Shown: positions 5,258-60,800 of the stretch, piece by piece
Position numbering within the stretch: position 1 is the first letter of the stretch
How the letters are laid out: the number at the start of each line of letters is the position of its first letter
From: a virus
DNA: 64,000 bases
Virus record (IMG/VR): IMGVR_UViG_3300016471_001035
Location: 75,595-139,594 of that record
Reading direction: 5' to 3' (one strand)
Notes under the pieces: generated by a model
Databases searched by the model: none
Seen by the model: only the letters and a program-made list of their open reading frames with translations
What the model was told of the DNA's origin: nothing
Position numbers and translations under genes: made by a program

Positions 5258-6160
5258 TTAAGCAGTACTGTACTTGTCAAATTCGTCGAAGCTTCTTCCA
5301 CCTTTATAACCTAGCTCTCTTGCGATTGAAGTAGGCTCGTCTTCTTCAGGATATTCTTCTACCGTTTCCACTTCACCGGTACCTTCGCCTTCTTTTTTCT
5401 CAGATGAAGGTGAAAAACTATTTTTAAATTTTAATGAATCAATAAAGTCCTGTACCATTTCGCTGTCTTTAGCCATCTTTTCATCATAGGCGCGAATAAT
5501 AGCCTCTTCTACTTCTTTTTTAAGCTCAGGTGAATTATAAATATCGCTACCACTAGATACAGTTATTTCATCAGGCAATTCATTAAAGATTGGCATCCAT
5601 TCTTTAATAAATCTAACATCGTTTTTTATAAAGGTATTTGTTGTAGAAGCTGGTGTTGCAGGTGATGTACCAGGTGCACCGGGAGCAACTACTTTCTTAC
5701 CCTCTACCCCAGAGGTAACAGCTTGCTTGACTTGTGCTGGGCTAGCTGCTGCACCACCTTCTACATCTACTCTTAAAACGTTTAACAAATTGTCAACTAT
5801 TCTAGCAGTGTATCTAGCTTCAGTACCGCCGAGTTTAAGTTCGTTTTTAATTAAATTTTCTAAATCTGTTCTAAATTTCATCTTAGATCCCGGATAATAA
5901 AGCTTATATTCTTTACCATCTATAGTATGAATTGCGGGTTTAAAGAGCTTTGTCTGTATTGCTTGAAGTAAACGATTTGCAATTTCTGCTTTTGTTTTAC
6001 CTTCCTTTGCAGCTGTTTTACCAATACCATACCCCTTGCCAGGCGCTTTTTCAATATCACCGGTATATCCTAGCTCGTCAGCATATATAGGTGCTTCTTT
6101 TAAAACCCTAGGTTTTTTAGTTAAATAAGCTTCGAAAATAAGCTTTGTATCTTTGTTCAT
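5258..6160 (-). CDS. Hypothetical late protein, candidate internal head protein
   Basis: 300 aa, TAAATA upstream, N-terminal LIFEA/VLKEA motifs, acidic C-terminus. Confidence 0.7.
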   Translation of the reverse strand: MNKDTKLIFEAYLTKKPRVLKEAPIYADELGYTGDIEKAPGKGYGIGKTAAKEGKTKAEIANRLLQAIQTKLFKPAIHTIDGKEYKLYYPGSKMKFRTDLENLIKNELKLGGTEARYTARIVDNLLNVLRVDVEGGAAASPAQVKQAVTSGVEGKKVVAPGAPGTSPATPASTTNTFIKNDVRFIKEWMPIFNELPDEITVSSGSDIYNSPELKKEVEEAIIRAYDEKMAKDSEMVQDFIDSLKFKNSFSPSSEKKEGEGTGEVETVEEYPEEDEPTSIARELGYKGGRSFDEFDKYSTA

Positions 6161-6161
6161 C

Positions 6162-6200
6162 TTGAATTATTTATTCTTTATATTATAATAAATCAGGAGG
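6162..6200 (+). promoter_or_regulatory. Sigma70-type promoter followed by Shine-Dalgarno AGGAGG
   Basis: TTGAAT(6162)-N16-TATAAT(6184-6189); AGGAGG at 6195-6200, 8 nt before ATT at 6209. Confidence 0.75.
6168..6173 (-). promoter_or_regulatory. T4-type late promoter core
   Basis: TAAATA-N7-ATG(6160), nested in the spacer of the opposite-strand sigma70 promoter. Confidence 0.6.
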
Positions 6201-6208
6201 TTATAGCT

Positions 6209-6892
6209 ATTTGCGGTATATTTGGTTCTAAAGACTTTACAACTTATGTAAAGCTTTATAAGAGCAACAAGAAACGTGGTACGTTTTCTTACGGTGGTCT
6301 ACTGATCGGCTCACATATTCACGCTGTTCTCAAGACACCAGGCACTGCCAACCTATCCAATAAGCTAGTTATAGAGTACGGTAAAAAGAGGAGAAACATT
6401 ACAGATTTTGATGTTTTTTTAGGACACACTCAAGCCCCTACATCTGAAAAAAGAACATTTTCACCAAATACATCTCATCCTTTTCAACATAAAGAATGGT
6501 TAATTGCACATAACGGGGTTTTAACAAACGATAAGGAATTAAAAAAGCTTATTAAAGATAAAAAATCTTATAACGTTGTAGATTCATCTGTTATTGCACC
6601 GCTTATAGCTATGTTTGTTAAAGAGCTAGATGATGAGGTTGCAGGTGTTTGCAAAGCACTATCGCTACTTAAAGGTACGTTTGGCCTTTGGATATATAAT
6701 CAAAAAACTGGTAATATTTTTCTCGCACGATCCGGCAGTACAGTATTCGCAGATTTTCTATCAAACGACTTTTCTTCTTTAAAGGAAAGCGGGTTTGTCC
6801 CTCTTGACGAAGGTACACTATACCTATTAACTAAGGAAGGGTTAACCTCCGTAGGCGTATTTAAGACTAACTCTCCGTTTTTTACACAATGA
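6209..6892 (+). CDS. Class II (Ntn) glutamine amidotransferase, ATT start, 227 aa
   Basis: Read by hand: ATT TGC GGT ATA TTT GGT = (M)CGIFG, then RG, LGHTQAPT, SHPF, AHNGVLTN, VDSSVI, LKGTFGL. No stop before joining ORF 6611-6892; no in-frame ATG/GTG/TTG back to the TAA at 6122. Confidence 0.9.
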   Translation: MCGIFGSKDFTTYVKLYKSNKKRGTFSYGGLLIGSHIHAVLKTPGTANLSNKLVIEYGKKRRNITDFDVFLGHTQAPTSEKRTFSPNTSHPFQHKEWLIAHNGVLTNDKELKKLIKDKKSYNVVDSSVIAPLIAMFVKELDDEVAGVCKALSLLKGTFGLWIYNQKTGNIFLARSGSTVFADFLSNDFSSLKESGFVPLDEGTLYLLTKEGLTSVGVFKTNSPFFTQ

Positions 6893-7581
6893 AAACAGCA
6901 TTTTATTTTTGTACAAGAAATTCTAAAGCGCAAGATACTTTTGCATTTAAATCTCTTCAAAGAATTAAACTAGCTACTCTATGGGAGTTTACTATAATTT
7001 ATAAGGAAAATAATAATGACGGATTAAGCTTAAATTATAATAGTGTTTTAGAAAAGCATGGTAAAGATTATGATAACATAGTTTTTATACACGATGATGT
7101 TTATATTGACGATCTTGGAGTGGTAAATAAGCTAGAAAAAGCTCATAATGATTTTGATATTGTAGGTCTTGCTGGGGGGTTAAATCCTGAAATTAAAGCA
7201 CCCGCCCTTTGGCATTTAATGTGTGGGGGGTTTAACAGCGGTAATTTGAGAGGAGCAGTAGCCCATAAATTTAATAATGATCAAATTTTTATGACCAATT
7301 TTGGCCCCACACCCGCTAGAGTTGCTATTTTAGATGGACTATTCCTAAGCGTTAAAACCGAATGTTTTTTAAAAAAGGAATTTAAATTTAATGAAAATTA
7401 TAACTTCCATCATTATGATATTGCCACCTGTATTGATGCTAATAAAAACAAATTAAAGTTAGGGGTCGTCCCTATATGGGTAGTACATAATTCACCCGGT
7501 CTTCTTAATATCAACGATGCTACATTTAGCGCTAGTCAATCTATATTTTTAAGAGAGTATAGCAGTATTGATTCTGTATAA
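6889..7581 (+). CDS. GT-A fold glycosyltransferase-like protein
   Basis: LSLNYN, VFIHDDV (DxD-like), IVGLAG, LDGLFL, FHHYD; ATGA overlap with the amidotransferase. Confidence 0.75.
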   Translation: MKTAFYFCTRNSKAQDTFAFKSLQRIKLATLWEFTIIYKENNNDGLSLNYNSVLEKHGKDYDNIVFIHDDVYIDDLGVVNKLEKAHNDFDIVGLAGGLNPEIKAPALWHLMCGGFNSGNLRGAVAHKFNNDQIFMTNFGPTPARVAILDGLFLSVKTECFLKKEFKFNENYNFHHYDIATCIDANKNKLKLGVVPIWVVHNSPGLLNINDATFSASQSIFLREYSSIDSV

Positions 7582-7595
7582 TTTTAATATATCAT
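7568..7595 (+). promoter_or_regulatory. Sigma70-type promoter, start codon at predicted +1
   Basis: TTGATT-N16-TATCAT-N6-ATG(7602). Confidence 0.7.
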
Positions 7596-7601
7596 AAGAG
7601 A

Positions 7602-8930
7602 ATGGTTAAATTAGATCTAGATTTTTTTGAGCTTATTATTGCTTATAAATCATTAACTGATGAAACCTATTTAGCTTCTGTTGTCGACCATATAAAGCCT
7701 ATTTTCTTTAAAAATAAAGATATTAAAGTTATTTTTACAATAATAAGAGATTTTTATGAAAAAAGAAATGCATGTCCTACCTTAACAGAAATAAAATCGT
7801 ATTTAACTAACGATGAGCTTAAAAATTCATTTAAGAATGTTGTAACACAGTTTAATAATTTAGATAAAAATTTTAACACAGATGAATTATCTGCTAATAC
7901 AGAAACTTTTATAAAAGAAAAATCCGTATACCATACAATGATGGATGTAGTAGATGATATCAACAAAAATAGTGTCGACACTTCTAAAATTTTAGCTAAA
8001 TTTGAAAAAGCTTGTAGTATATCTTTAACCACTGAAATAGGGTTAGATTTGTATGCTAATTTAGATAGAGTAATTGAAGACCTGCATTCTTCAGAAAAAT
8101 ATATTCCTTCTAAATGGAAATGGCTTGATGATAAAATAGGAGGTGGGTTTCTAGAATCTGGTAGAGCACTCTATTTGTTTGCAGGCGAAACAAATATTGG
8201 TAAAAGTATATTTTTAGGAAATGTAGCTATTAACATAGCTGAGCAAGGAAAGACTGTATTGCTTGTTTCTTTAGAAATGCCAGAAATAATTTATGCTAAA
8301 AGACTCGTTTCAAGTGTATCTAAAATACCATTAAGCCAATTAAAAATAGAGTCTGATTCTTTAAAAAATCAAATTAGCGAGTATTGTATTGAAAATCCAA
8401 ACGCAAAAATTATTATAAAGGAGTTTCCTCCCGCAACAATTACGCCCAACCATTTAAAGGCTTTTATTAAAAAATTAATACAAAAAGGTATTAAGATAGA
8501 TGCCATAGTTTTGGATTACGTAAATCTATTACATTCGTCTATGGGTGATTCAAGCTATGAGCGTGTTAAGATTTGTACTGAACAATTAAGAGCTTTATCA
8601 TATGGGTTTAATTGCCCTGTTATATCCGCTACTCAGTTAAACCGTGAGGGGTATGAAATAACTGACCCAGGTTTAAAGACAATATCAGAAAGTATAGGGT
8701 TGGCTATGACAGGTGACGTTATTATGAGTATTTGGCAAGAAGATACAGATAAAGAACTTGGCATTATTAAAATGGGATTAATGAAAAACAGGTTTGGACC
8801 TAATTACGGTCATTGTGCAATGAGGATAGATTATTCAACACTTACTATTACAGAAGACGAGCATATAAATGACACAGAAGCAAGCACTTCTTCAATTAGT
8901 ACGTTGACAAAATTAGCTATCGACAATTGA
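7602..8930 (+). CDS. gp41: Replicative DnaB-like helicase (T4 gp41-like)
   Basis: Walker A GETNIGKS, SLEM, VLDYVNL, ATQLNR, KNRFG. Confidence 0.95.
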   Translation: MVKLDLDFFELIIAYKSLTDETYLASVVDHIKPIFFKNKDIKVIFTIIRDFYEKRNACPTLTEIKSYLTNDELKNSFKNVVTQFNNLDKNFNTDELSANTETFIKEKSVYHTMMDVVDDINKNSVDTSKILAKFEKACSISLTTEIGLDLYANLDRVIEDLHSSEKYIPSKWKWLDDKIGGGFLESGRALYLFAGETNIGKSIFLGNVAINIAEQGKTVLLVSLEMPEIIYAKRLVSSVSKIPLSQLKIESDSLKNQISEYCIENPNAKIIIKEFPPATITPNHLKAFIKKLIQKGIKIDAIVLDYVNLLHSSMGDSSYERVKICTEQLRALSYGFNCPVISATQLNREGYEITDPGLKTISESIGLAMTGDVIMSIWQEDTDKELGIIKMGLMKNRFGPNYGHCAMRIDYSTLTITEDEHINDTEASTSSISTLTKLAIDN

Positions 8931-8955
8931 TTTATCTATTTAGTTAGATAATTAG

Positions 8956-9252
8956 TTGTTGAATGTGAAAGGTTACGATCCTTCTGAGCAATTAACAGAT
9001 TATGAACAAACTCATTTGTTTTTATCTTTCTGTTCGTTTGTAACACTCACTAATACAAAAAAATTAAATCTTGCTAATGTTTTTATTACCCTTCTTAAGA
9101 ATAAAGAATTTAGAGAGATTTTTAAAATTTATTGTGATTTAAAAAATGATTTTTCAGCTGTAAAATTTTTCTTGCAATTTGATTCAAGCTTGTATAAAAG
9201 TAAATATATAATGAAATTTTTAAACTCAAATAAAAAGGCGCTTTTCCTATGA
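8956..9252 (+). CDS. Hypothetical protein
   Basis: 98-aa ORF, start uncertain (TTG 8956 or GTG 8965); its stop overlaps the bS21 start. Confidence 0.65.
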   Translation: MLNVKGYDPSEQLTDYEQTHLFLSFCSFVTLTNTKKLNLANVFITLLKNKEFREIFKIYCDLKNDFSAVKFFLQFDSSLYKSKYIMKFLNSNKKALFL

Positions 9253-9461
9253 GCAATATTGTTAATGCTTCTGTAACTTTAGATAAGAAGAAATGTACAG
9301 ATAAAGTTTATTTTGATAAAGCCTACAAAAGGTTTGCAAGAGAATTTTTAAGGTCGGGTGTGTTAGAGGATTTAAGATTTAAAAGGTGTTATTATAAACC
9401 AAGCGTGTTGCGTAAGTTAAAAAAGCAAGTTGCAAGACAGAAGTGGAAGTTTTACAATTGA
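9249..9461 (+). CDS. rpsU: Phage-encoded 30S ribosomal protein bS21
   Basis: 70 aa, basic; FDKAYKRFAREFLRSGVLEDLRFKRCYYKPSVLRKLKK matches the bS21 pattern ALRRFKR..G...E.R.R.FYEKPS..RK. Confidence 0.85.
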   Translation: MSNIVNASVTLDKKKCTDKVYFDKAYKRFAREFLRSGVLEDLRFKRCYYKPSVLRKLKKQVARQKWKFYN

Positions 9462-10099
9462 TTACCGAGTTTGAAAAGCACATTTATAATTCTTATTTAA
9501 AAGTCACTAGATCAAATAGTGAACTACCTTACAAACTTAGAAAAAATTTTGAAAAAGTTGACGATAAGCTTTATGTAGCCTTAAAAAAGCTTTCTTCTTT
9601 TTTTAAGAGATACCCCCATATAAAAATAGAGGATTTTTTTCGCGCGCCTTATTCTCTTTACCCTGACGAAAAATATTTTCCAATAGAATATTTTTATTCA
9701 CTTAAAGCTATAAAGTCCTATACTTTGTTTAATAAGCAACAGACAAATCTTGATCCGGATAGCGATGAACAGCTTAATAGCATTAAAAATTCATTAATTT
9801 TTATAAAAAGTTTTTGTAGAGATAATAATTTAAATGTAGAAAATTATATTTTTCACAAAACAAAAAATGAATATTCATTTATTTTGCACTTAAAAGAACA
9901 TAATGTCAACGTATATACTTTATTAGGATTTAATAACTTTGAGAAAATTCTTAGAGGCTGTAACCCCGATATTACAAAATTTATTATTGGTGAGGATATA
10001 TACAACAACATCCAGGTATTTAGAACACGTCTTTATAATTCAAAAAAAGCAAGTAAAGTTGTCGAATATGGACTTAAAAAAATATTAGAAAAAGCTTGA
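9443..10099 (+). CDS. Hypothetical protein, possibly gp59-like helicase loader
   Basis: Basic, aromatic-rich, about 215 aa, directly upstream of gp32 as gp59 is in T4; function from synteny only. Confidence 0.45.
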   Translation: MEVLQLITEFEKHIYNSYLKVTRSNSELPYKLRKNFEKVDDKLYVALKKLSSFFKRYPHIKIEDFFRAPYSLYPDEKYFPIEYFYSLKAIKSYTLFNKQQTNLDPDSDEQLNSIKNSLIFIKSFCRDNNLNVENYIFHKTKNEYSFILHLKEHNVNVYTLLGFNNFEKILRGCNPDITKFIIGEDIYNNIQVFRTRLYNSKKASKVVEYGLKKILEKA

Positions 10100-10123
10100 T
10101 TAAGCAAATAAAGTTATTATTAT
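10096..10123 (+). promoter_or_regulatory. Sigma70-type promoter, start codon at predicted +1
   Basis: TTGATT-N16-TATTAT-N6-ATG(10130). Confidence 0.7.
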
Positions 10124-10129
10124 TATTCT

Positions 10130-10984
10130 ATGAGTACATTTACCACATCGATGTTTGAAAGTATTAAGGGCGCTTTGACGAAAAATAACGAATCTACTGC
10201 TTCGAAGGTTAAAGACTATCTTCGCTGTGAAGCCGGCAACACATATACAGTTAGACTTATTCCTAATGTAAAAGACCCATCTAAGACGTTTTTTCACTAT
10301 TATTCATACGGCTGGAATAGTTTTGCTACTGGTGAGCTTATTACTGCAGTAAGCCCTACTACATGGAATCAGCGTGATCCTATTGCTGAAGAAAGGTATC
10401 GTATTTTGAGAACAGGTACAGAGAAAGAGAAGGAAAAGGCTTTGGCTATTAAGCGTAGAGAAAATTGGTTAGTTAATGTTTATATTATTAACGATCCCGT
10501 AAACTCTGATAATAATGGGAAGGTAAAGCTCTTACGTTTTGGTCGCCAGCTACATAAAATTATTATGGATGCTATTGAAGGTGAAGAAGCCGCAGAGCTT
10601 GGTCCTCGTATATTTGACCTATCTCCTAAAGGCTGTAACCTTAGAATTAAAGTTGAGAAGCAGGGTGACTACCCCACATACGTTTCATCTAAGTTTTCTA
10701 CTCCTAAGGAAATAGAGGGGTTGGACGAAGATGATTATAAGAAAGTTTATAACAGCTCATTTGATCTTGAGTCATATGTTAGTGTTAAGAGCTACGAAGA
10801 GCTTAAAAATCTACTTGATGCGCATTACTATGGCACCAAGGATGTTGAAGAGGACGGCGCTGTTACTGCTGAAGTTAAAGCACCTAAGCCTTCAGTTAAT
10901 GTAACTATTAATTCTAAGAAGGCTGAGACGAAAGAGACTACAGCCGACGATCAGCAAATAGACGAATTACTTAAAGATCTATAA
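10130..10984 (+). CDS. gp32: Single-stranded DNA-binding protein (T4 gp32-like)
   Basis: VRLIP, NVYIINDP..NNGKVKLLRFG, IFDL..GCNLRIK, YPTY.SSKF, acidic tail IDELLKDL. Confidence 0.92.
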   Translation: MSTFTTSMFESIKGALTKNNESTASKVKDYLRCEAGNTYTVRLIPNVKDPSKTFFHYYSYGWNSFATGELITAVSPTTWNQRDPIAEERYRILRTGTEKEKEKALAIKRRENWLVNVYIINDPVNSDNNGKVKLLRFGRQLHKIIMDAIEGEEAAELGPRIFDLSPKGCNLRIKVEKQGDYPTYVSSKFSTPKEIEGLDEDDYKKVYNSSFDLESYVSVKSYEELKNLLDAHYYGTKDVEEDGAVTAEVKAPKPSVNVTINSKKAETKETTADDQQIDELLKDL

Positions 10985-11382
10985 TGGAAGATACTTTTAG
11001 AGAGTTAACTCCAGAAGAAATTAAACTGGCTACTATCCAGTTTATGGGCCAGCACCTAACTGGAGAAATGAAAGAACTCAATAAAAATATTATCGGCGAA
11101 AGCGCTACACTTAGATCTTTATCCATAGACCCCTTAAAAGTTATTCAAACAATTCCAGGGGATAAACGTCCATATGCTACAACTGTTAATGCTGGGATAA
11201 ATATTGCTCCTAACGCTATTCATCATCCTATTCCAGTACAGCAATCTCAACAACCCACAGTAGATCCTAATCAACTTGAATTTGATTTTGGTAAGTCAAA
11301 TTTAGCAAATTCTATTTTAGATCGGTTAGATTCGTTGAGCTCAAAATTAGATAAAGTTATAGCCTTACTTAAAAAAGATTGA
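10984..11382 (+). CDS. Hypothetical protein
   Basis: 132 aa, TAATG-coupled to gp32; contains DPNQLEFDF. Confidence 0.75.
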   Translation: MEDTFRELTPEEIKLATIQFMGQHLTGEMKELNKNIIGESATLRSLSIDPLKVIQTIPGDKRPYATTVNAGINIAPNAIHHPIPVQQSQQPTVDPNQLEFDFGKSNLANSILDRLDSLSSKLDKVIALLKKD

Positions 11383-11406
11383 TAATTAGTAGTTATATCT
11401 TATTAT
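11379..11406 (+). promoter_or_regulatory. Sigma70-type promoter, start codon at predicted +1
   Basis: TTGATA-N16-TATTAT-N6-GTG(11413). Confidence 0.7.
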
Positions 11407-11412
11407 AAATGT

Positions 11413-12144
11413 GTGAATTTAAGTATAAAAGATAGAGATAACTTTTTAAATAATTTTGTAATTCCGTTAAGTAAGATAACAGACAGCGCAGTTATAAAAA
11501 TTGCTCCAGGCAAGATAACATCTTTAATTTCCACAAGCGATAATACAATTATTGTTAATTCAGAGTATAACGATGATAGTATAAAAGCAGTTAAAACTTT
11601 AAACGTACCTGACTTAAAGAAGCTTTGCAGAGTTATTTCATGTATAGATGAAACAACTTTTAATTTAGATATATCATCAAATTTTATAGGCTACGATTCT
11701 CGTAATGTTAGGTTTAAGTATCATTTGTATGACGATGGCATTATTGCATCACCTAAGCTTAGTATAGATAAACTTAATTCTTTAGAATTTGATGGTAAGT
11801 TCACCCTACCTCTCGCCTCTGTCATAAACCTTATCAAAGGCAGCTCCATAAGCACCGAAACAAATAAGATTTATTTGTCTGTTAAAGACAAGCAGATATT
11901 TGGTGAATTAACAGATAAGACTAGATCTAATATTGATTCATATGGTATTAATATTTCTGATGATTATAGCGGAACTCAGTTTGCAGTTGCTATACCCTTG
12001 AATTTTGAGATATTTAGAATAATTTCTTCTATGAGATTTAAGGAGCTTCAAGCAAACCTAATAACAAAAATGGGCGTATTAACGTTAGACTTAAACTTAG
12101 ATAATTCTAAATTTAAGTTTGTTATTTCTGCTCTAGCCAACTAA
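11413..12144 (+). CDS. gp45: DNA polymerase sliding clamp (T4 gp45-like)
   Basis: 243 aa, two-domain beta-rich pattern, LNVPDLKKL and FKYHLYD resemble gp45 segments; replication context. Confidence 0.7.
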   Translation: MNLSIKDRDNFLNNFVIPLSKITDSAVIKIAPGKITSLISTSDNTIIVNSEYNDDSIKAVKTLNVPDLKKLCRVISCIDETTFNLDISSNFIGYDSRNVRFKYHLYDDGIIASPKLSIDKLNSLEFDGKFTLPLASVINLIKGSSISTETNKIYLSVKDKQIFGELTDKTRSNIDSYGINISDDYSGTQFAVAIPLNFEIFRIISSMRFKELQANLITKMGVLTLDLNLDNSKFKFVISALAN

Positions 12145-12507
12145 ATGAGCAAAAATAAAATTAAAACACCTAGCTATTTTGTAAAGCGTTTAAGAGACAA
12201 CGGCTTTATAGCTATTAAGTTATTTGGGGTATTTGCTAAGCAAGATCCAAGACAATGGGTAGTTCTTGTCAATCCTAGTGAGGCATCGGTTCTTGTTACC
12301 TGTTATTTAAACAAGGATAATCTCAATGAAGTTCTATTTGAATTTAATGACGGTGATAGACATATACCTAGAAATTTTTCTATTAAAACTGATTCTATTG
12401 AAGTAATTATAGACTATTTGCTTAGACACGGTGTTTCTAATAATAAAGATTACCCAGGCCGCGATAGATATTTGTCAAAAAGATTAAATACTTATGATGA
12501 AAAATAA
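12145..12507 (+). CDS. Hypothetical protein
   Basis: 120-aa ORF abutting the clamp gene. Confidence 0.75.
   Translation: MSKNKIKTPSYFVKRLRDNGFIAIKLFGVFAKQDPRQWVVLVNPSEASVLVTCYLNKDNLNEVLFEFNDGDRHIPRNFSIKTDSIEVIIDYLLRHGVSNNKDYPGRDRYLSKRLNTYDEK
12485..12490 (+). promoter_or_regulatory. T4-type late promoter core
   Basis: TAAATA-N6-ATG(12497). Confidence 0.5.
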
Positions 12508-12820
12508 AAATTCATCCAAGGGTAAAGATCAGAATAAAAGCTTTAATCCTAATGAAAATAAAGAAATCAAAGAGCTTACTCATAAAGCACTTTTATCATT
12601 TCTTCGTGATCAAATTAGTGAAAAAAACTCTAATAAAAAAGATATAGAAGCGCTAAATGCTCAAATATTAGAATTTTTAAATTGCTTTATTTTAATTGGA
12701 TATAACTTTAATGGCGAGCCAATATCTATGATATCTGCGCACAACCAGCAAGAAGCAGATTCTCTGGGCACACTTATTAATAAGTTTATATTTAATTCAT
12801 CTAAAGACTCTGGAGAATAG
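12497..12820 (+). CDS. Hypothetical protein
   Basis: ORF; second ATG (12497) preferred over 12494 from promoter spacing. Confidence 0.7.
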   Translation: MKNKNSSKGKDQNKSFNPNENKEIKELTHKALLSFLRDQISEKNSNKKDIEALNAQILEFLNCFILIGYNFNGEPISMISAHNQQEADSLGTLINKFIFNSSKDSGE

Positions 12821-12838
12821 TTAGTTTGTTAATATAAT
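12811..12838 (+). promoter_or_regulatory. Sigma70-type promoter with weak -35
   Basis: TGGAGA-N16-TATAAT-N5-GTG(12844). Confidence 0.5.
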
Positions 12839-12843
12839 ATTTT

Positions 12844-13680
12844 GTGGTAAAAGTATTAATACTTGGCAAAGGATTTATAGGTAATAAACTTGCAAAATAC
12901 TTGCAAGAAAATAATGTTGATATTTTTCATATAGCACAAAATGAAATAGATTACACTCGCCATACCACTTTAAGCATGCTCTTAAGAGAATATAATTTTT
13001 CTCATGTAGTTAATTGCTGCGGTTATACAGGCAAGCCTAATGTTGATGGCTGTGAAAATAATAAGGAAGATTGCTGGAAGTATAATGTAACAGTTGCTTC
13101 TTACATAGACAGGCTATGTCATTGCTATGGAAGAAAGATTATACATATTTCAAGCGGTTGTATATACACAGGCTACGAAAAAGAATTTACAGAAACAGAC
13201 GTCCCAAACTTCGGTCTTTTTAATCCCAACTCTAGCTTTTATTCTAAGAGCAAACACGCATTAGAATCAGTAGTCAATACAAATTTTTCTACTGTTTTTA
13301 GAATAAGAATGCCATTTACAAATCTGAAAGAAGATAAAAATTATATTTATAAAATATTGAAATATGATAATCTTTTGAGTATGCCAAACAGTCTTACAAG
13401 TGTAACAGACCTCTGTAGTGTAGTTCAGCAATTTATAGAGGAGCATAGGCCTGGAATTTTTAATGTTGTCAATCCGCAACCGGCTGAAGCTAAGGAGATT
13501 GTCACTCTTCTAAAAAAATATAACCATATTAATCCTAATTGGAAGTTCGTAGAATATAAGGATCTTGACATCATAGCTAATAGATCTAATTGTATTTTAA
13601 GCTCTGATAAACTTAAGACTATAGGCCTATGTTTACCTGATACATTCGAATCTCTAGAGAAATGTATAAAGGAGTTATGA
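12844..13680 (+). CDS. NDP-4-keto-6-deoxysugar 3,5-epimerase/4-reductase (RmlD/UER1-like SDR)
   Basis: GKGFIG Rossmann motif, GYTGKPNVDGCE, SSGCIY, catalytic YSKSK, RIRMP. Confidence 0.85.
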   Translation: MVKVLILGKGFIGNKLAKYLQENNVDIFHIAQNEIDYTRHTTLSMLLREYNFSHVVNCCGYTGKPNVDGCENNKEDCWKYNVTVASYIDRLCHCYGRKIIHISSGCIYTGYEKEFTETDVPNFGLFNPNSSFYSKSKHALESVVNTNFSTVFRIRMPFTNLKEDKNYIYKILKYDNLLSMPNSLTSVTDLCSVVQQFIEEHRPGIFNVVNPQPAEAKEIVTLLKKYNHINPNWKFVEYKDLDIIANRSNCILSSDKLKTIGLCLPDTFESLEKCIKEL

Positions 13681-13970
13681 AATTTTCATTTTTAAATAAG
13701 CACCCCAAAAAGCGTATTATATATGCTATTACTGGGGGCTATTATTTAGGCGAATTATTTGTTTTTATGGAAAAGACAGATGAAAAATATATATTTCTCT
13801 CCCTACCTGAAATGCACATTAGAGAGGTGCCAATCGATAAATTTGAGTTTGGATTGAACCAAAACATTATAGATATAGTTAAAAAAATACCAAATTTTGT
13901 TTATAAAGTATGTAAAGCGCAATATACCAAAAATAAAACACGTGACTTACAGTCTTTAAAGGATAAATAG
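13677..13970 (+). CDS. Hypothetical protein
   Basis: Start probably ATG 13677 (ATGA overlap with upstream stop) rather than 13662. Confidence 0.7.
   Translation: MKFSFLNKHPKKRIIYAITGGYYLGELFVFMEKTDEKYIFLSLPEMHIREVPIDKFEFGLNQNIIDIVKKIPNFVYKVCKAQYTKNKTRDLQSLKDK
13964..13969 (+). promoter_or_regulatory. T4-type late promoter core
   Basis: TAAATA-N5-ATG(13975). Confidence 0.6.
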
Positions 13971-13974
13971 TTAT

Positions 13975-14163
13975 ATGGATTTTATTTCACCAAAACCAAT
14001 CGTGTCCCCTATTAGCGGTCAAGTAGTAAGACCGGTCTTAAAAACGTATGTTCGTGAAGGCAAAGAAATTGTAGAAGCTGAATATATCGACCCAGCTAGT
14101 GGTTCTTTTATCCGTAAAGGTATTGTTTCTGTAAGAGATTTAAAGAAACCCTCCGAAAAATAA
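13975..14163 (+). CDS. Small hypothetical protein
   Basis: 62 aa; SPISG...DPASG resembles a cysteine-free ribbon; own late motif. Confidence 0.7.
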   Translation: MDFISPKPIVSPISGQVVRPVLKTYVREGKEIVEAEYIDPASGSFIRKGIVSVRDLKKPSEK

Positions 14164-14165
14164 TC

Positions 14166-14193
14166 TTGTAAGTTAGTTGTTTTGTACTATAAT
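14166..14193 (+). promoter_or_regulatory. Sigma70-type promoter, start codon at predicted +1
   Basis: TTGTAA-N16-TATAAT-N6-GTG(14200). Confidence 0.75.
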
Positions 14194-14199
14194 TAAAAT

Positions 14200-15237
14200 G
14201 TGTTAATACCGACCGAATATATACTGCAAAAATTTTATCAGTACGCTGGCTATCCTCAATATAAAAAGAGTAGCAACACTTATATTGCAGGGTGCCCTAT
14301 ATGCAGAGAAGGAAAATCGTGGGGTAAAAAAAGAAGATGCATTTTTATTGTTGAAGACAATGCTATATGCTGTCATAATTGTGGTTGGTATAGTGATGCG
14401 GTAAAATGGATTTGCGAGGTATCGGGGCTAAATTTTTCTGAAGTACTTAATGAATCTAAAAATTTTGATATCTTACCATTAAACGCATATACTGACGAAA
14501 CTAAACAGGAAAAGCCTAAACCAACACATACACTCCCTACCGACTGTATAAATTTATTTGATAATAATCAAATTGAATTTTATAAAGATAATAAGATTGT
14601 TAATGACGCTCTTTCTATTGTTATTAATAGAAGACTAGATAGAGCAGTTAATAGACCAGATACATTGTATGTTACCTGTAAAGATAAAATTCATAAAAAC
14701 AGAATTGTAATACCTTTTTATGACGATAATAATAATAATATTATTTTTTATCAAACAAGGCTTATTTATAAAAACGATGAAAAGCTGTATCCTAAGTATC
14801 TAAGCAAGGTAAATGGAGAGAAATCCCTATACAATATCAATAAAATAGATCCGCAATTAGAATATATTTTTATTTTTGAAGGCCCTATCGATTCTTTTTT
14901 CGTAAAAAACGGTACTGCTGTTGCAGGTATTCAAGAGAATAGTAGCAATACATTTTCAACACTCCAGGAACAACAACTCATACCTTTTAAGTTTTTTAAA
15001 AAGATATGGGTGTTAGACAGCCAGTGGGCTGATACAGCAAGTAGAAATAAGACGAGTAAGTTAATTGAAAATGAAGAAACTGTTTTTATATGGCCAGAGG
15101 ATTTAGGTAAAAAATATAAAGATATAAATGAGTACTGTGTTAGTAATAAATTAGACAGTATTGATCCAGAGTTTTTAATTAATAATTCTTATTCAGGAAT
15201 TAAAGCCAAGCTTTTAATGTCTATTATCTGTCGTTAG
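14200..15237 (+). CDS. gp61: DNA primase (T4 gp61-like)
   Basis: Zn ribbon CPIC...CHNCG, RIVIPFY, TOPRIM FEGPIDS, KDINE. Confidence 0.93.
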   Translation: MLIPTEYILQKFYQYAGYPQYKKSSNTYIAGCPICREGKSWGKKRRCIFIVEDNAICCHNCGWYSDAVKWICEVSGLNFSEVLNESKNFDILPLNAYTDETKQEKPKPTHTLPTDCINLFDNNQIEFYKDNKIVNDALSIVINRRLDRAVNRPDTLYVTCKDKIHKNRIVIPFYDDNNNNIIFYQTRLIYKNDEKLYPKYLSKVNGEKSLYNINKIDPQLEYIFIFEGPIDSFFVKNGTAVAGIQENSSNTFSTLQEQQLIPFKFFKKIWVLDSQWADTASRNKTSKLIENEETVFIWPEDLGKKYKDINEYCVSNKLDSIDPEFLINNSYSGIKAKLLMSIICR

Positions 15238-15631
15238 CAGAAATTAAATAGCCTTTAAGAGATTCGCTCAAAGAACTAAGCTCTGCTGCTAGTCTTGCTA
15301 TTTTCTTTTTCTCGCTTCTAGCAATATCTTCAAAAATAGAATCACAAGCTGCTGTGTGAAGCTGTACCTGCATGCTGCTAGCATCTGTACTATTTAAAAA
15401 CTTAATAAACTCATCTATTTGAGTAATCCAGCCTTTAAGCTTGGAAATCTGCTCTGCTTTTTTATGATCTTGTACTTGCTCTCTTCCTCCCTGAACGTCA
15501 AAATCTTCAGGCTTAGCAGTATCAAGCGTAGATGCCATAGCTTCTTTATCGGTTTGAGGAGCTACAGCTGGAGCAGGTTCCGTCTCATCAGCTTCTAATA
15601 ATGTGGTAAACTTACTAACAAAAGAACTCAT
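15224..15631 (-). CDS. Hypothetical late protein, candidate internal head protein
   Basis: 135 aa, N-terminal LLEAD, TAAATA-N5 upstream. Confidence 0.7.
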   Translation of the reverse strand: MSSFVSKFTTLLEADETEPAPAVAPQTDKEAMASTLDTAKPEDFDVQGGREQVQDHKKAEQISKLKGWITQIDEFIKFLNSTDASSMQVQLHTAACDSIFEDIARSEKKKIARLAAELSSLSESLKGYLISANDR

Positions 15632-15636
15632 ATTAT

Positions 15637-15656
15637 TATTTATTATTGAATAAATA
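15637..15656. promoter_or_regulatory. Back-to-back divergent late promoters
   Basis: Minus TAAATA (15637-15642)-N5-ATG(15631); plus TAAATA (15651-15656)-N5-GTG(15662). Confidence 0.7.
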
Positions 15657-15661
15657 TTTTT

Positions 15662-16048
15662 GTGAGAAAAAAGTTAGTTTTTGAAGATATTTTAAATTAC
15701 AATAAATGGGTTTCTGGTATTGCTTCAAGAGAGCTTGCCTCACAAAGAGTTAGCTTAAGAGATTTATTTAACAACCCTTATGTCGATCAAAATCCTAATG
15801 ATGCTAGAGCAGAGCCAGTTATGCCATATCCATTGCAAAGCGTGGTACCGCAGATAGGGGACCTTTACATTTATGCATGTAATACTAAAGATTTGTTTAA
15901 ATCATCATTATCAAATCCTCTTGTTGCAAAAAATAAAATTGCCAAAGAAACTGTATTAGATATTGTAAGTAAATTAGATGCTGTTATTGACATTATTAAA
16001 GGTATAATTGAACAAGCCAATAAACCGGTTGCAAAAAAAGTTAAATAA
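15662..16048 (+). CDS. Hypothetical late protein
   Basis: 128 aa, N-terminal LVFED. Confidence 0.7.
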   Translation: MRKKLVFEDILNYNKWVSGIASRELASQRVSLRDLFNNPYVDQNPNDARAEPVMPYPLQSVVPQIGDLYIYACNTKDLFKSSLSNPLVAKNKIAKETVLDIVSKLDAVIDIIKGIIEQANKPVAKKVK

Positions 16049-16056
16049 GTTATAAT
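16029..16056 (+). promoter_or_regulatory. Sigma70-type promoter, start codon at predicted +1
   Basis: TTGCAA-N16-TATAAT-N6-ATG(16063). Confidence 0.75.
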
Positions 16057-16062
16057 ATATTG

Positions 16063-16512
16063 ATGGTAAAGAAAGTAATATCACAATTACTACCTCTTTT
16101 AGGCGTTGCAACGCTTACAAGTTTTTTGCTAGCAACCTGGGGCGTTAATTATTTTATTGGTGCCTTAGTTGGCATTTTAATTCAATTTGTTGCCTTTTAT
16201 TCATTCAAAAGCATTCTTATAGCAGTTGTTGCTTTGAGAAATAAAAAACTAGATAATGAGAGAATAAAAGAATTATCTTACCAAGGACTAGAGGTGGTCT
16301 GCCCTTGTTTTAAACAAATTAAGGAATTTGTTCCAATAAAGCTAAATATAGCAAACTACTATAAATGCAGTGAATGTAAAAAAACTATTGGAGTCGTAAT
16401 TACACCGGAAACTGCAATTGTAACAGAGCCCGCTGATTCAAGCCAAGAAGCAGTAAATAAACTGCTAGCACAAGGCATTCTGAATGTATCTAAACCAAAT
16501 GCAAATACCTAA
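16063..16512 (+). CDS. Membrane protein with C-terminal putative Zn ribbon
   Basis: Two hydrophobic N-terminal segments, then CPC...CSEC; ATG 16063 preferred over TTG 16060. Confidence 0.7.
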   Translation: MVKKVISQLLPLLGVATLTSFLLATWGVNYFIGALVGILIQFVAFYSFKSILIAVVALRNKKLDNERIKELSYQGLEVVCPCFKQIKEFVPIKLNIANYYKCSECKKTIGVVITPETAIVTEPADSSQEAVNKLLAQGILNVSKPNANT

Positions 16513-16972
16513 TAGCATAAACAATCTTACTGCTGATAAAGCAGCTGATGTATTCTTATCAAATACAAAGCTTCCAGAGATACCTTTAGATGAAATAGTT
16601 CTTGCAATTAAGAGGTCATTACCGGTAAAAGAACTTGAGTCTTTTGAATTAGGGCTAGCTTACTTTAAAAAGGATGTAGAGATAGATAAAGCTATTATTA
16701 AAAATATTTTATCTTTAATAAACGAGTCTTTAACTAGAGCTGTAAATGATAGTCAAATTGATATTGAAATAAGGCACTTAATTAACTCACAACTCAAGAC
16801 AGCAATGGAAAGTATGTCTTATAATTTTGACTCTTTTTATAATATATTAAATATTTTAAATAAACAAAAGAATTTACTTGACGTTAAGAACTTTATCCTG
16901 ATAATAATAGGATATGCCATCAGTCTTCTCAAAAAAATACATAACAATACAAACAAGCAAAACAACTCATAA
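16484..16972 (+). CDS. Hypothetical protein
   Basis: Helical ORF; start uncertain (16484 or 16499). Confidence 0.65.
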   Translation: MYLNQMQIPNSINNLTADKAADVFLSNTKLPEIPLDEIVLAIKRSLPVKELESFELGLAYFKKDVEIDKAIIKNILSLINESLTRAVNDSQIDIEIRHLINSQLKTAMESMSYNFDSFYNILNILNKQKNLLDVKNFILIIIGYAISLLKKIHNNTNKQNNS

Positions 16973-17222
16973 ATTTAAGGCTGAAGAATATGCCAGGTGG
17001 CTTTGTTTAATAGAAGCTTTAGATATTGTTACTCGCGGTGCAGATAGATTTAAAGTCGATCTAAATAACAAAGATATTGATTGGATTAAGCCTCTGTCTT
17101 TTCAAAAATATGTGGCCGAGCGCTTTGAATCAATGATTGATGAGGTGTCGATGAACGAAGGTGTAAAGATAAATATTAAAAAATTACCATGCATTACATC
17201 GTCGGAACCAGTTTTAGAGTAA
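16914..17222 (+). CDS. Hypothetical protein
   Basis: 102-aa ORF; TTGACG-N16-GATAAT lies upstream. Confidence 0.65.
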   Translation: MPSVFSKKYITIQTSKTTHKFKAEEYARWLCLIEALDIVTRGADRFKVDLNNKDIDWIKPLSFQKYVAERFESMIDEVSMNEGVKINIKKLPCITSSEPVLE

Positions 17223-17464: not shown

Positions 17465-17465
17465 G

Positions 17466-18925: not shown

Positions 18926-18931
18926 ATTAAG

Positions 18932-19783: not shown

Positions 19784-19784
19784 A

Positions 19785-57001: not shown

Positions 57002-57007
57002 TAAATA
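57002..57007 (+). promoter_or_regulatory. T4-type late promoter core
   Basis: TAAATA-N5-GTG(57013). Confidence 0.65.
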
Positions 57008-57012
57008 ATAAT

Positions 57013-57864
57013 GTGAATTATGTAAATTACGTTTTGTCGAGCGTACAAATTCCCGGATATCCTTCTGTATTAAATCATTATATTTTTATTGACCCTGTAC
57101 TAGGAACTTCTATTAATTGGCCTGCCTGTGCAAACGGAAGCTTTTTTTCTGAAACAACCGGCACGTTTGTATACCCCGCAACTGCTAAAGGCGGTTTATT
57201 TTTCCCTTGGGGTTATTCAGTTGAAAACACCACACTTACAGCAGATTTAGGCATATTTAAAGGGCAGGTAACTCTTTTAATTAGCCCCTCAGCTATAGAT
57301 AATACGTATTTTACAACATTAAAAATAATTTACGATTTTAATGATAATGAGATTATTAACATTGAAAAGGGTATTGTAGAAAATATTTTACCAGGCAATG
57401 TTGCTTTTCTTGATGCTGGCAACCCAAACGATAAAAATATATCACACGTATATACATCAAAATCATTAAGCGGGACAACTTATTATCCAACTATTACTGT
57501 TTTAAACGGTAATATGGCATTAAGTGTTTTTAATTTAAAGCTTTCACTTCTACCTGGCACAGTATTCGATTTTGAAGATTTTCATCTAATAAATACCTCA
57601 CAGCTTTCTAGGTTTGACGCACCGCAATTTAAATCATTAGAAGTGTTTGAATTAGATGAAGAAAACAATAATTTTGTATCAAATTTTCTTTTAATAAGCT
57701 CTTATCCCACCCCTACGCCTTCCTACACGCCAGTGCCCACCCCTACACCATCAATTACCCCTACTATAACACCTACTATTACTCCTACTAAAACTGTTAC
57801 GCCTACGATAACACCCTCACCATCTATTACACCTACTATAACTCCATCGAGGTCGAGTTTATAA
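57013..57864 (+). CDS. Putative virion protein with C-terminal Thr/Pro tract
   Basis: PKD-like YDFND...ISHVY...YYPTITV segment; about 48-aa (TPTI)n tail. Confidence 0.7.
   Translation: MNYVNYVLSSVQIPGYPSVLNHYIFIDPVLGTSINWPACANGSFFSETTGTFVYPATAKGGLFFPWGYSVENTTLTADLGIFKGQVTLLISPSAIDNTYFTTLKIIYDFNDNEIINIEKGIVENILPGNVAFLDAGNPNDKNISHVYTSKSLSGTTYYPTITVLNGNMALSVFNLKLSLLPGTVFDFEDFHLINTSQLSRFDAPQFKSLEVFELDEENNNFVSNFLLISSYPTPTPSYTPVPTPTPSITPTITPTITPTKTVTPTITPSPSITPTITPSRSSL
57706..57849 (+). repeat. Thr/Pro coding repeat
   Basis: PTPTPSYTPVPTPTPSITPTITPTITPT... Confidence 0.85.
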
Positions 57865-57867
57865 ATA
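57860..57867 (+). promoter_or_regulatory. T4-type late promoter, full consensus
   Basis: TATAAATA-N6-ATG(57874). Confidence 0.75.
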
Positions 57868-57873
57868 TTTACT

Positions 57874-60800
57874 ATGGATGTAATTAATTTAGATAGTACT
57901 AATTTTGTTGGTTTGTCAGCAAAATATAGCAATGATGAAACTTTAAAGTTTAATCAATCTATTATATTTTCTGAACAAAGCATCTATCTATCGCTTAACG
58001 AAATATTGAAAGAAATTTACGATAATAAAATAAACAACTATTCTAATTTGTTTTTAACAAATAAAAACGTTCTATCAACCGGTATATATATTGATAAACT
58101 AGAGCCATTAGAAGATGAAGGGTTCTCTACATATTTTGCTGCTAATGCTGCGGGTACTATAACACCATCTACTAAATTTTGGGTAGTAGATGAACCCGCA
58201 ATTAGCGTAAATGTAGCGCAAGTTAAAGTAGATGGCGAGTTTAGTACTATAAACAACAAGTATTTTTTTGATGTAGAGCTATTAACTGAAAAACTTTGTA
58301 AAATTTCCCACGAAAACAGCAACGTTACTAGATATTTAACTGTCGATTATACCGGTAATCTGTCTTTTGCAAAAGATGCAGGATTAGATTTAATTGGCCC
58401 TCTTAGCCCCCAGATATTTTATTACATTTATGATAGAGCTTATAATTATATGGTTTTAATAAAAAACATAAACGATATACCTAAATTTGTTACTTTTAGC
58501 GCTAATAATGAAGATCTTGCATTAACCGATCCCATTACAGGTACGAGTATACCGTATTCAATAACTTCTGTTTTTAGAGTAAGAGAAAGAAACCCTCTTC
58601 CCAATAAAACAGAATTATTAGATCCTTGGGTTAGCTATACAAAAGATTTTAAAACAAATTCACAAGATATTAATGCTGATAGAAGTTTTGATAACACTAA
58701 TACAAACTTTTTAATTAATAACCAGTATTATACAATTTCTGGTAACGAAATTAACTTTAATTTATTATCACTTAAAAATACCTCTACCCCGGAATACAAC
58801 ATTTCTAGAGCTAATCCTTTTTTTGATGAAATAAATGTTGAGTTTAGAGACTATAAAAAGCTTCATACAGGTACATATCAAAATTTAGGAAATGATAATA
58901 TTACTGCTGGGTTTGAAAGTTATACTAATGCTATAACTCTTAAGAAAGATAAAGTAACATATTTTCATATTCCTCAAGTATTTTATCCTTTTTTAAGACT
59001 TAATATAAATGATTCTGGATTGACAGAAGCAGGAGCTATAGCTGGTGATCATCCTTTAAAATCAGATAAAATATTTAAGAAAAAAGCTGATTATAAATAT
59101 ACTTCTAATTTTGGCGATACTGCGGAAGAAAATTCAGGCGAATTTTTATGCGCATGGCTTTCCGGAAATACAAGCCCAGACGTTAGACCTGTGTGGGTAG
59201 ATAGATATTATAATCCAAAGAAAATTTCTGGTTATCAAGCTCTAACTGCATCAGACTTTAAAGCAATTAAATATATTTCTAATTTTGACTGCTTGGTAGA
59301 GAAAGCTTTTGAAACGTTTGCGAGGGATGTGGATGTTTTTGATAAACCATCTGACTTAATTTTTGAAAAAGGAACTTATTATGCGTATCATCATTACGGG
59401 CCAAAAGACGTAGATAAATTTATTGAAACCCTATCTCTCGATCTGGTAGAAAAAGGTATAAAGACTTATCTTTTCAATAATGGTGCTGACGCTACATATA
59501 CTGCGGTAATAAATGAAAGTGATGAGGTATCAGAATATTTATTTGACGGTAAGAAATACGGTACTACCTCACAGTTATCCGCTATTCAGGCGTCTAACCA
59601 ATTTACTTTAGTTTTTGATGGCTACAGTTCAGATTGGAATAAACCCATAGGAAATCAATTAGTTGGTAATTATGATAGAGACGGTTTTGGTATTTTTAAT
59701 GAAAATTTAGTTACACCCACTTTATTTGTACCTATTTTAAGTGGTCTGTATGTTACAAACTTAGATTATAGAATTCTCAATACATTAAAGTTCGATAGTA
59801 ATATTACAGGTATTATAAGACTTCAGGGTATGAACGATTTTTATGGCATATTTGAAGACAATAGCTTTAGAAGATTTAATTTAAATTACTCTGAAACAAG
59901 ACGTGGTTATCCTGCTGATATAACAGATGAATTAGGTAAAGTTAGAGGTGTTGATTATAATGAAACAGATGCAAGAGTTCTTATTGGCGATAACCCCGGG
60001 GTTAAAAAACTAATGAGGCTAGATTTAAACTCTCATGAAATTACAGATATTACTTCTGGTACTTTTAATTTAACAAAATACCCTAGAAGAATATCAAAAG
60101 GGCTTAATATAAACACAGCAAATTCAATAGTATTTTATAATGACGTAATGTATTTAACGCAAGGTTCAAAAGCAATAAGAGCCAAAGATACAATTTTTTA
60201 TAATTTTGAAAATTCTCAAATACTACAATGGAAGGATATTACTAATTTAACAAGTATTAATCCAATAACAGCATTTGTATCAAGCACTACTATAAATGAC
60301 TTTTCTGTAGACTTTGATAGCAATTTATGGATAGTATTTGATAATAATAAATTTGCAAAATATAGTTATGACCGCGTTTTTATACTTTCTGGTGAATTTA
60401 TAGATACCGAAGACAAAAACTATACTAATTACAAAATAGATTTTACTGCAGATTTTAATTTAGGAAGTTATTCTCAACATGCGATAGTTACTCGTCAATC
60501 ATATACAGGAGAAAAAAATAATTTACAATTCGTAAAGCTTTCATTAAGCGGTGTTACTGTAGATAGAAAATATTTTTCAGAATATACGCCTTTAGGTAAT
60601 AATTATATTTGTAAAAACGTTCTAGTAAAGGACGTATTTACAACTTCACCTACATTATCTGTACAGTACCCCAACGGTATTGTTTTAAATCAAATTATTC
60701 CCAGTGAAAATTACACCAACCTTATTTCTTTTAGTGCTAATATTGCAAATTACTTTTATAATAGAAACTTACAAACGTATAATTTTGCAAATTCTAAATT

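Follow-up and report, generated by a model that had tools for sequence, protein, structure and literature searches.

The stretch of DNA analysed here (64,000 nt, referred to below as the window) belongs to a 139.6-kb phage genome whose nearest cultured relatives share 31-40% identity with it in capsid, terminase and sheath. On both strands of the window the hexamer TAAATA, at times TAAGTA, stands immediately before start codons, as follows:

6160..6173, minus: TAAATA-N7-ATG, 300-aa gene without assigned function; N7 in 17/17 orthologues
12485..12499, plus: TAAATA-N3-ATG-ATG, the second ATG (12497) giving N6; box within the end of the upstream gene
13964..13977, plus: TAAATA-N5-ATG, 62-aa gene without assigned function
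15629..15664: divergent pair 15631 (minus)/15662 (plus), 30-nt gap, one N5 box on each strand
20103..20150, minus: terminator-box-GTG unit, TAAATA at 20116-20111, N5, GTG at 20105
20786..20800, minus: internal ATAAATA-N5-ATG, in frame at Met100 of ORF 20177-21085
21083..21108: 20-nt divergent gap, TAAATA-N6-ATG of 21085 (minus) overlapping TAAGTA-N12-ATG of terminase 21106 (plus)
22810..22823, plus: TAAATA-N5-ATG, tail tube; box overlaps the terminase stop
23465..23479, plus: TAAATA-N6-ATG, tail sheath
25779..25792, plus: TAAATA-N5-ATG, second tail tube
26350..26365, plus: TATAAATA-N5-GTG, tube-like baseplate gene (weak phrog_45 match)
28098..28111, plus: TAAATA-N5-ATG, baseplate hub
28876..28890, plus: TAAATA-N6-ATG, tape-measure-like gene
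32110..32123, plus: TAAGTA-N5-ATG, 120-aa tail gene (weak match)
36961..36974, minus: TAAATA-N5-GTG, 154-aa gene without assigned function, back to back with the early dUTPase promoter
39019..39033, minus: TAAATA-N6-ATG, 200-aa gene without assigned function
39078..39093, plus: TATAAATA-N5-GTG, gp25 baseplate wedge, start 39091 (MATIK)
44860..44873, plus: TAAATA-N5-ATG, 1047-aa gene of no family inside the baseplate block
57002..57015, plus: TAAATA-N5-GTG, 283-aa gene, phrog_15511 (function not known)
57860..57876, plus: TATAAATA-N6-ATG, 1195-aa gene of no family

All 20 TAAATA/TAAGTA sites listed in the original prediction lie in the window exactly where it had put them: N5 before the plus-strand starts 13975, 15662, 22821, 25790, 26363, 28109, 39091, 44871 and 57013 and the minus-strand starts 15631, 20105 and 36963; N6 before 12497, 23477, 28888 and 57874 (plus) and 21085 and 39021 (minus); N7 before 6160 (minus); and the TAAGTA-N5 variant before 32121 (plus). 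The complete TATAAATA had also been correctly placed at 26350, 39078 and 57860, although the consensus of the box is NATAAATA rather than TATAAATA. When starts are picked blind to the motif, the box occupies N5/6 in 16 of the window's 61 ORFs, where dinucleotide shuffles give 0.59 +/- 0.75, and 5-6 nt upstream of 40 of the 185 starts of the whole genome, against 1.78 +/- 1.18 (500 shuffles, highest count 6). Among the other ATG/GTG triplets 17 of 6328 have a box at N5/6, and about 10 of these 17 are better start codons; after refinement of the starts the genome holds 35 N5, 15 N6 and 2 N7 sites (52). An A directly precedes the box in 34/52 sites versus 57/260 copies elsewhere (p 2e-9), and 20 of the 52 lie at divergent starts, with both boxes of one pair inside the mere 12 nt that separate its start codons.

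The arrangement is conserved. At 13975 the box follows the start codon in orthologues although the upstream stop shifts, while in the orthologues of the 32121 gene TAAGTA and TAAATA interchange at N5/6. Before 20105 there is an intrinsic terminator (stem 20150-20127, T-run to 20120), followed by 3 nt and then TAAATA; it is kept directly 5' of the box in about 20 orthologues, in which the start switches between ATG and GTG and N5 stays constant. The internal box of ORF 20177-21085 is found in 29 of 29 covering orthologues, always written with the codons ATA AAT (fixed synonymous), and is predicted to yield a nested product of 203 aa. Orthologues confirm the revised gp25 start at 39091: 12 of 14 begin at that codon, and the upstream ATG occurs in one only. 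At 12494/12497 either ATG may be the start, most orthologues retaining both, possibly due to the overlap with the coding end of the upstream gene.

The view that the box marks structural genes is borne out by 8 of the window's 20 genes; the remaining 12 belong to no named PHROG family. The complementary view, that no identified replication gene carries it, agrees with the counts: the box precedes 13 of 24 virion genes and none of the 25 genes for replication or metabolism (p 1e-5). Among the box-led genes without assignment, a first pattern for T4-like capsid-targeting N-termini was not enriched (p 1.0); a second, hand-made one matched 16/44 (p 0.005), but was chosen post hoc, and we do not claim this reading. 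From coupled genes the box is nearly absent. A Shine-Dalgarno (SD) sequence precedes 1/50 box-led genes versus 15/54 coupled, operon-internal genes, and no box-led start shows anti-SD pairing below -6 kcal/mol. Starts are exclusively ATG or GTG, which would put a purine at +1, with no TTG among 251 N5 starts or 200 early starts clade-wide, in agreement with what holds for leaderless initiation codons in mycobacteria (PMC4633059). In this genome GTG accounts for 12/35 N5 starts versus 2/54 comparison starts, an excess that is not significant at the family level (p 0.14), and a pyrimidine occupies -1 in 85% of N5 families versus 55% of coupled families (p 2e-5).

The replication genes have promoters of another class, and the window also encodes parts of a late transcription apparatus:

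2059..37020, plus: early class TTG-N16-TATAAT-like-N6-start, with the -35 box 34 nt upstream of the start codon
Early-class genes: uvsX 2093, helicase 7602, gp32 10130, clamp 11413, primase 14200, dUTPase 37018
9249..9461, plus: phage ribosomal protein bS21, coupled, in the early block, without late box
11413..12144, plus: sliding clamp, gp45 equivalent (AlphaFold pLDDT 91.6; Foldseek PCNA E 7e-14, TM 0.72)
37497..38435, plus: clamp loader, gp44-like

These early promoters are of the TTG/TATAAT (sigma70) type, not of the Bacteroidetes type. Across the clade the commonest spacing is N6 for the early -10 box, with 129-143 sites, and N5 for the late box, with 251; an offset of one base is what the known geometries of sigma70 and gp55 predict. 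A gp55-like sigma factor, for which the original prediction had proposed a check elsewhere in the genome, is indeed encoded at genome positions 69758-70360, upstream of gp47/46 (phrog_234 E 2.7e-27; PDB 7d7c E 6e-8). Y97 and T99 of its deep pocket do not vary, nor does L54, and F86 is retained. The shallow-pocket N13, R57 and H95 are unlike T4, and therefore +1 could shift by a base or two. The sliding clamp was recognized by its fold alone and missed by sequence profiles, including the Pfam profile of gp45. A search for gp33 with PF16805 gave no match in this record, which is rated 66% complete, just as the gp45 profile missed the real clamp.

On the other hand, some late genes have leaders. 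The gene for the major capsid protein gp23, the most abundant protein, has no box near its start and is preceded by a conserved, structured, often SD-bearing leader of 77 nt, which gave no match in Rfam; it is the conserved exception to the predicted leaderless layout of the clade. Short leaders precede the terminase gene (N12), the portal gene (N11) and one gp5-like gene (N14), and orthologues conserve N12 for terminase and N9-N13 for portal. The proposal that even sheath and tube start at or within 1-2 nt of +1 agrees with the box-led, SD-free sheath and both tube genes, but is not supported as a general rule, gp23, portal and terminase being leadered and operon-internal genes still using SD. 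In the run of tail genes that extends from 21106 to about 35000 we found no terminator separating them; therefore, sheath and tube would also be carried on read-through RNA, and such transcripts probably exist alongside the box-initiated ones.

We propose, with a probability of roughly 0.8, that a gp55 late promoter placed at the start codons gives leaderless late mRNAs translated without SD. T4 gp55 flips A-12, A-9 and A-8 (PMC7892883), which would therefore set the box at -13 to -6 and, at N5, +1 on the start codon. The box N-A-TAAATA (at times TAAGTA) would thus serve as the late promoter for host core RNA polymerase with phage gp55; spanning -12 to -6, it would place +1 on the first base of ATG or GTG at N5 and 0-2 nt earlier at N6-N7. 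About 50 late mRNAs should then begin at the start codon without a ribosome-binding leader, with genes such as those for sheath, tubes, gp25, gp13, gp15 and gp21 each on its own leaderless mRNA or one with a leader of 1-2 nt, to be read from the 5'-terminal start codon. Early and middle genes would likewise be leaderless, from host-sigma promoters, operon-internal cistrons would be translated by coupling and from SD sequences, and the leader of the major capsid gene would be kept. The motif with its spacing and enrichment, the split by gene class, the genes for gp55, clamp and loader and the conservation are observed directly; from T4 biochemistry we infer that the box is a promoter and where +1 lies and, one step further, leaderless translation and adaptation to a host efficient at it. 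Selection on the translation mode is one interpretation; alternatively, the phage could have adapted to a host already good at leaderless initiation. Leaderless mRNAs are only weakly initiated in E. coli, where GTG reaches less than 10% of ATG (PMC4633059), and the model therefore requires a host unlike E. coli. A broader and doubtful extension would have this large uncultured T4-like clade express nearly everything via 5'-terminal starts, with both promoter classes fused to ATG/GTG, internal fusions giving nested proteins and a leader on the major capsid gene only; the phage may also bias ribosomes, e.g. by its own bS21.

The box might instead be a gp55 promoter whose leaderless RNA is minor, with +1 a few bases off, or with protein made mainly from read-through polycistronic RNA by internal initiation in unstructured AU-rich stretches; genome compaction would then account for part of the tight spacing. 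This is unlikely, even though the tail genes lack detected terminators between them, the N6/N7 sites, the N12 of terminase and the N9-N13 of portal indicate that spacing can loosen, and gp23, of top abundance, has a leader. Compaction does not explain the sharp N5 peak combined with the -1 pyrimidine and ATG/GTG-only starts, a pattern that persists at intergenic gaps of 40-110 nt and at divergent ones, and SD is kept by internal cistrons, not by box-led ones.

Flavobacterium is an SD-poor host with A-rich upstream signals. That TAAATA is no promoter but a Bacteroidetes-like, S1- or bS21-dependent A/U-rich translational enhancer in longer leaders is suggested by the phage-encoded bS21 and by the existence of such hosts (PMC10783764), yet it seems highly improbable. 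It predicts no early/late split (observed 13/24 versus 0/25), and all gene classes should share an enhancer of this type, whereas the 25 replication/metabolism genes lack the box; nor can it account for a box 3 nt past a terminator or for two boxes within the 12 nt between divergent starts. In T4 and S-SM2 the identical hexamer, 9-46 nt upstream, is the known promoter, and the early promoters are not Bacteroidetes-like. Processing into leaderless forms occurs in other systems, but trimming of longer precursors at the motif is scarcely credible here, given that the motif is a gp55 box with the A-12 preference, the gp55 gene is present and a terminator directly precedes one conserved site. We give next to no chance to an artefact of AT-richness or upstream TAA stops: despite 33.5% GC, 312 copies of TAAATA and 7/52 boxes starting at the upstream gene's stop, the shuffles (40 seen, 1.8 expected) and equally AT-rich outgroup phages (5/254, all but one of these in a single relative of the clade) refute it, and the 20/52 sites at divergent starts speak against it.

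The phage bS21 may be linked to leaderless translation. In Bacteroidetes-infecting bS21 phages the gene lies among head and packaging genes and its sequence is Bacteroidetes-like (PMC9723584), unlike here, where it follows the helicase in the replication block and its sole bacterial match is generic (48%). As a guide to the host, GTDB scans with bS21 gave nothing and then one generic Firmicutes-like bS21, and in a protein atlas bS21 and Hc1 fell mostly into viral clusters.

The classic example of strong, SD-led late translation is that of the T4-like phages. If the sheath, tube and baseplate mRNAs of this clade are leaderless, then leaderless initiation can feed high-output virion genes, which would point to an abundant lineage of hosts that translate such mRNAs efficiently, from GTG too; the capsid exception would offer an internal contrast for the limit of leaderless output. 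The box rule corrects about 10 start calls in this genome and exposes nested genes. Both parts of the scheme are already known, there is a precedent in Thermus phages, and it occurs partially in SAR11 phages; the layout appears, with good support, to be a variant of known parts. A literature search, from which subscription journals were largely missing, returned no report of leaderless gp55 transcripts.

The layout occurs throughout the clade. T4, S-SM2 and phiM12 do not have it, and in SAR11/OM43 myophages it is a minor pattern. T4 late transcription uses the -10-like box TATAAATA with gp55, gp33, gp45 and gp44/62 (PMC2988020, PMC7892883), and this phage shares with it the core box, the lack of a -35 element, about 50 sites, virion-gene targets, gp55 beside gp47/46, the clamp and the clamp loader. 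However, in T4 the distance from box to start is 9-46 nt, with SD leaders and 0/18 boxes at N5-7, whereas here the boxes lie at N5/6 without SD; moreover, the first T is relaxed (NATAAATA), gp33 was not detected, and gp55 carries a long basic N-terminal extension. HTVC008M, a SAR11/OM43 myophage, has 9 N5/6 TAAATA sites in 120 ORFs, gp25 among them, and Mosig and Melnitz have one TAAATA-N5-ATG gene each in the regions read; in those regions of the three phages sheath and tube lack an N5/6 box, the boxes of the portal and protease genes are found at N19-34, and SD use is about 40-55%. The Thermus phages phiYS40 and Lalka27a produce mostly leaderless transcripts, late ones included, with 5' ends at the initiator A or G (PMC3594737, bioRxiv 10.64898/2026.04.20.719267); they are not described as gp55 systems, the late box of Lalka27a is TAGGGT, and the ends were mapped by experiment in a leaderless-rich host, whereas ours follow from geometry. 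Finally, the TA-led leaderless genes of Actinobacteria and Deinococcus-Thermus (PMC3160421, PMC12340547, PMC4633059) resemble the present ones in a -10 box fixed directly before an ATG or GTG start without SD, but they use the host sigma70 box TANNNT at N6-7, while here the late box of a phage sigma factor lies one base nearer.

In our view TAAATA works, with a probability of roughly 0.8, like a T4 gp55 promoter fused to a leaderless arrangement, both the promoter function and the leaderless start being predicted by comparative analysis. The 20 box sites of the original prediction all proved correct (6160 being a start on the minus strand), and the positional enrichment it called for was found. 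With starts picked blind to the motif and 500 dinucleotide shuffles as the control, TAAATA lies five or six nucleotides (N5 or N6) before 40 of 185 genes in the genome (26 at N5, 14 at N6) versus 1.78 +/- 1.18 in shuffled sequence, and in the window alone before 16 of 61 versus 0.59 expected; no other spacing occurs in more than three genes of this motif-blind genome set. Refined starts give 52 sites genome-wide (35 N5, 15 N6 and two N7), a number near that of late promoters in T4, which has fifty (PMC2988020). Only 7 of these boxes start at the stop codon of an upstream gene, and 20 stand at divergent starts; among orthologues of the gene at 13975 the upstream stop shifts and the box stays with the start. 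An A directly precedes TAAATA at 34 of the 52 sites versus 57 of 260 other copies (p 2e-9). Orthologue comparison supports the start at 39091; the one at 12497 is predicted by the box rule.

The contig (139,594 bp, of which bases 75595-139594 form the window; 33.5% GC, rated linear and 66% complete) is, judging by its genes, that of a T4-like myophage. The window holds terminase, two tail tubes, sheath, hubs, tape measure, gp25 and gp6; gp13, gp15, portal, gp21 and gp23 lie outside it, and the replication set comprises family B polymerase, UvsX, helicase, gp32, primase and clamp loader. Close relatives are dozens of IMG/VR contigs, and identity to cultured phages never exceeds about 40%. Among other features, queC, queD, queF, folE and guaC (7-deazaguanine type) form three blocks (window 3171-3941; genome 33973-38306 and 57437-60863), none of these genes with a late box; window 6162-6611 is an apparent 450-nt gap in which a strong AGGAGGT near 6205 is followed by an ATT codon; and an Hc1 histone-like protein (L002:2241-2435, minus strand, outside the window) has an early-type promoter. 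The non-structural PhoH gene (genome 56576, in the outside stretch L003) has a late box at N7. A family of about 16 genes whose products start MADVTI-like (genome 110-2007 and 11204-16252 in the outside stretch L001; window 5024-5245 and 17466-19783) has its own box at N5/6 in 11, the others being coupled, i.e. operon-internal.

The gp55-like sigma factor to be sought elsewhere in the genome was found at 69758-70360, between uvsW and gp47. Aligned with T4 gp55, it keeps Y97, T99, L54 and F86 and differs at N13, R57 and H95; Y97 and T99 are the deep-pocket residues for A-12 and A-8. Since adenines at -12, -9 and -8 are flipped in the T4 gp55 cryo-EM structure (PMC7892883), TATAAATA is placed at -13 to -6, with +1 five bases past the box. 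In this gp55 (L004:12758-13360) and in those of many close relatives a basic segment of about 55 aa extends the N-terminus, which T4 gp55 lacks. The 243-aa protein of 11413-12144 is predicted to fold as a sliding clamp (pLDDT 91.6; fold match to PCNA, E 7e-14); it has no Pfam or PHROGs match, and its top fold matches as listed comprise PCNAs and one beta-clamp but not T4 gp45. Profile search of this 66% complete contig did not find gp33, a weak blank because the gp45 profile also missed the real clamp.

Early and middle genes provide an internal calibration. They follow the pattern TTG-N16-TATAAT-like-N6-start, and 27 of 30 have their -35 box 34 nt upstream of the codon. With the sigma70 -10 box at -12 to -7 and that of gp55 reaching to -6, both would set +1 on the start codon. 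Among the clade's 1,966 distinct starts the sigma70 box peaks at N6 and the late box at N5 (251, versus 112 at N6 and 51 at N7), the one-base offset that would be expected if both transcripts start at the codon. With one vote per protein family, a pyrimidine occupies -1 at 85% of N5 starts, versus 55% in the coupled class (N5 versus coupled, p 2e-5) and 47% at N6, a pattern consistent with transcripts that begin precisely at a Y-1/R+1 site at N5 and with leaders of mixed length (0-2 nt) at N6. Across the clade, N5 late starts and early starts are ATG or GTG only, a rule shared with mycobacterial leaderless mRNA, for which it has been shown (PMC4633059). SD-like words precede 15 of 54 coupled genes versus 1 of 50 late and 0 of 30 early ones, which indicates that this system can use SD but lacks it at starts directly preceded by a promoter.

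Some features of the early region may be mentioned here. The -35/-10 spacer (e.g. at window 2059, 7568, 10096, 11379, 14166 and 36984) is 16 nt in 141 promoters and 17 nt in 29 clade-wide, a possible fingerprint of the host sigma factor. L001 (genome 3400-9000) carries a run of short early genes, all led by TTG-16-TATAAT-N6-ATG; many of them begin with ATGATG and show AGGAGT-like bases between -10 box and ATG, too near the ATG for an SD role. A divergent bS21 with an aromatic C-terminus (window 9249-9461; 16 relatives at 56-90% identity by protein search) is present, coupled, in the early block; nothing links it to the box pattern.

Alternatively, TAAATA could be a translational enhancer rather than a promoter, which we consider very improbable. 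The box precedes 13 of 24 annotated virion genes versus 0 of 25 replication or metabolism genes (p 1e-5); the proposal that it marks structural genes is borne out for 8 of the 20 window genes, the other 12 belonging to no named family. The gene at 20105 has an intrinsic terminator whose end lies three bases 5' of the box, and a longer leader would fit there only with read-through of this terminator; about 20 orthologues (31-89% identity) preserve the terminator, the box and its N5 spacing, while the hairpins vary and the start switches between ATG and GTG. In the divergent pair at genome 21870/21883, outside the window, the start codons are separated by 12 nt, which contain both boxes as a palindrome. 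Finally, a second ATAAATA-N5-ATG lies in frame inside ORF 20177-21085 (minus strand; Met100, ATG at 20788) in 29 of 29 orthologues covering the site, not independent but ranging over 35-87% identity; all 29 use the codons ATA AAT, although genome-wide ATA encodes 41% of Ile and AAT 74% of Asn. This internal start probably yields a predicted nested protein of 203 aa.

The promoter reading has its exceptions. The expectation that abundant proteins follow the box rule failed for gp23, the major capsid protein, which has no box near its start; upstream lie gp22 and then 77 nt with a conserved element:

Genome 40328-40435 (L003:2328-2435), minus strand: gp23 5' element, made of TGAGG, a variable hairpin, CCTGA, an optional second hairpin, GGTCGA and often GGAG; about 39 relatives.

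The leader hairpin has a 4-bp stem with some changes on both sides, and the element, with 0 Rfam matches, is a candidate for a new cis-regulatory RNA or DNA site. Before the terminase start the box reads TAAGTA and stands at N12, a mostly conserved spacing, and the portal spacing ranges from N5 to N13 among orthologues. One relative has an extra ORF inside its terminase gene (L038:6377-9353), probably part of an intron that carries a homing endonuclease. Between the tail genes the analysis detected no terminator, so read-through RNA has to be allowed for.

The layout occurs at 133 of 372 ORFs in relatives with sheath identity of at least 47%, and at 5 of 254 in more distant phages, four of the five in one 40% relative. 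T4 (18 boxes at N9-46) and S-SM2 (14 at N15-43) have none in the N5/6 layout, which phiM12 and DLP6 also lack. Nine N5/6 sites occur among 120 ORFs of HTVC008M, and the parts of the Mosig and Melnitz genomes covered contain one site apiece; hence the layout is minor in cultured phages and dominant here. In the regions read of these three phages the sheath, tube and portal genes are without an N5/6 box. In distant AT-rich, SD-poor myophages (loci L041, L043, L046, L057 and L058) the structural genes are preceded, at about 10-25 nt, by ATTTATA and not by the N5 box.

Our literature searches found no paper reporting a leaderless arrangement for gp55 promoters; this analysis adds the site that abuts a terminator, the nested start, the -1 test at the level of protein families and the exception of the capsid gene. 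Of the T4 gp55 promoter system, gp55, box, clamp and loader are all present in this phage, gp33 being the component that the profile did not find. The leaderless arrangement predicted here is known from Actinobacteria and Deinococcus-Thermus and from the Thermus phages YS40 and Lalka27a.
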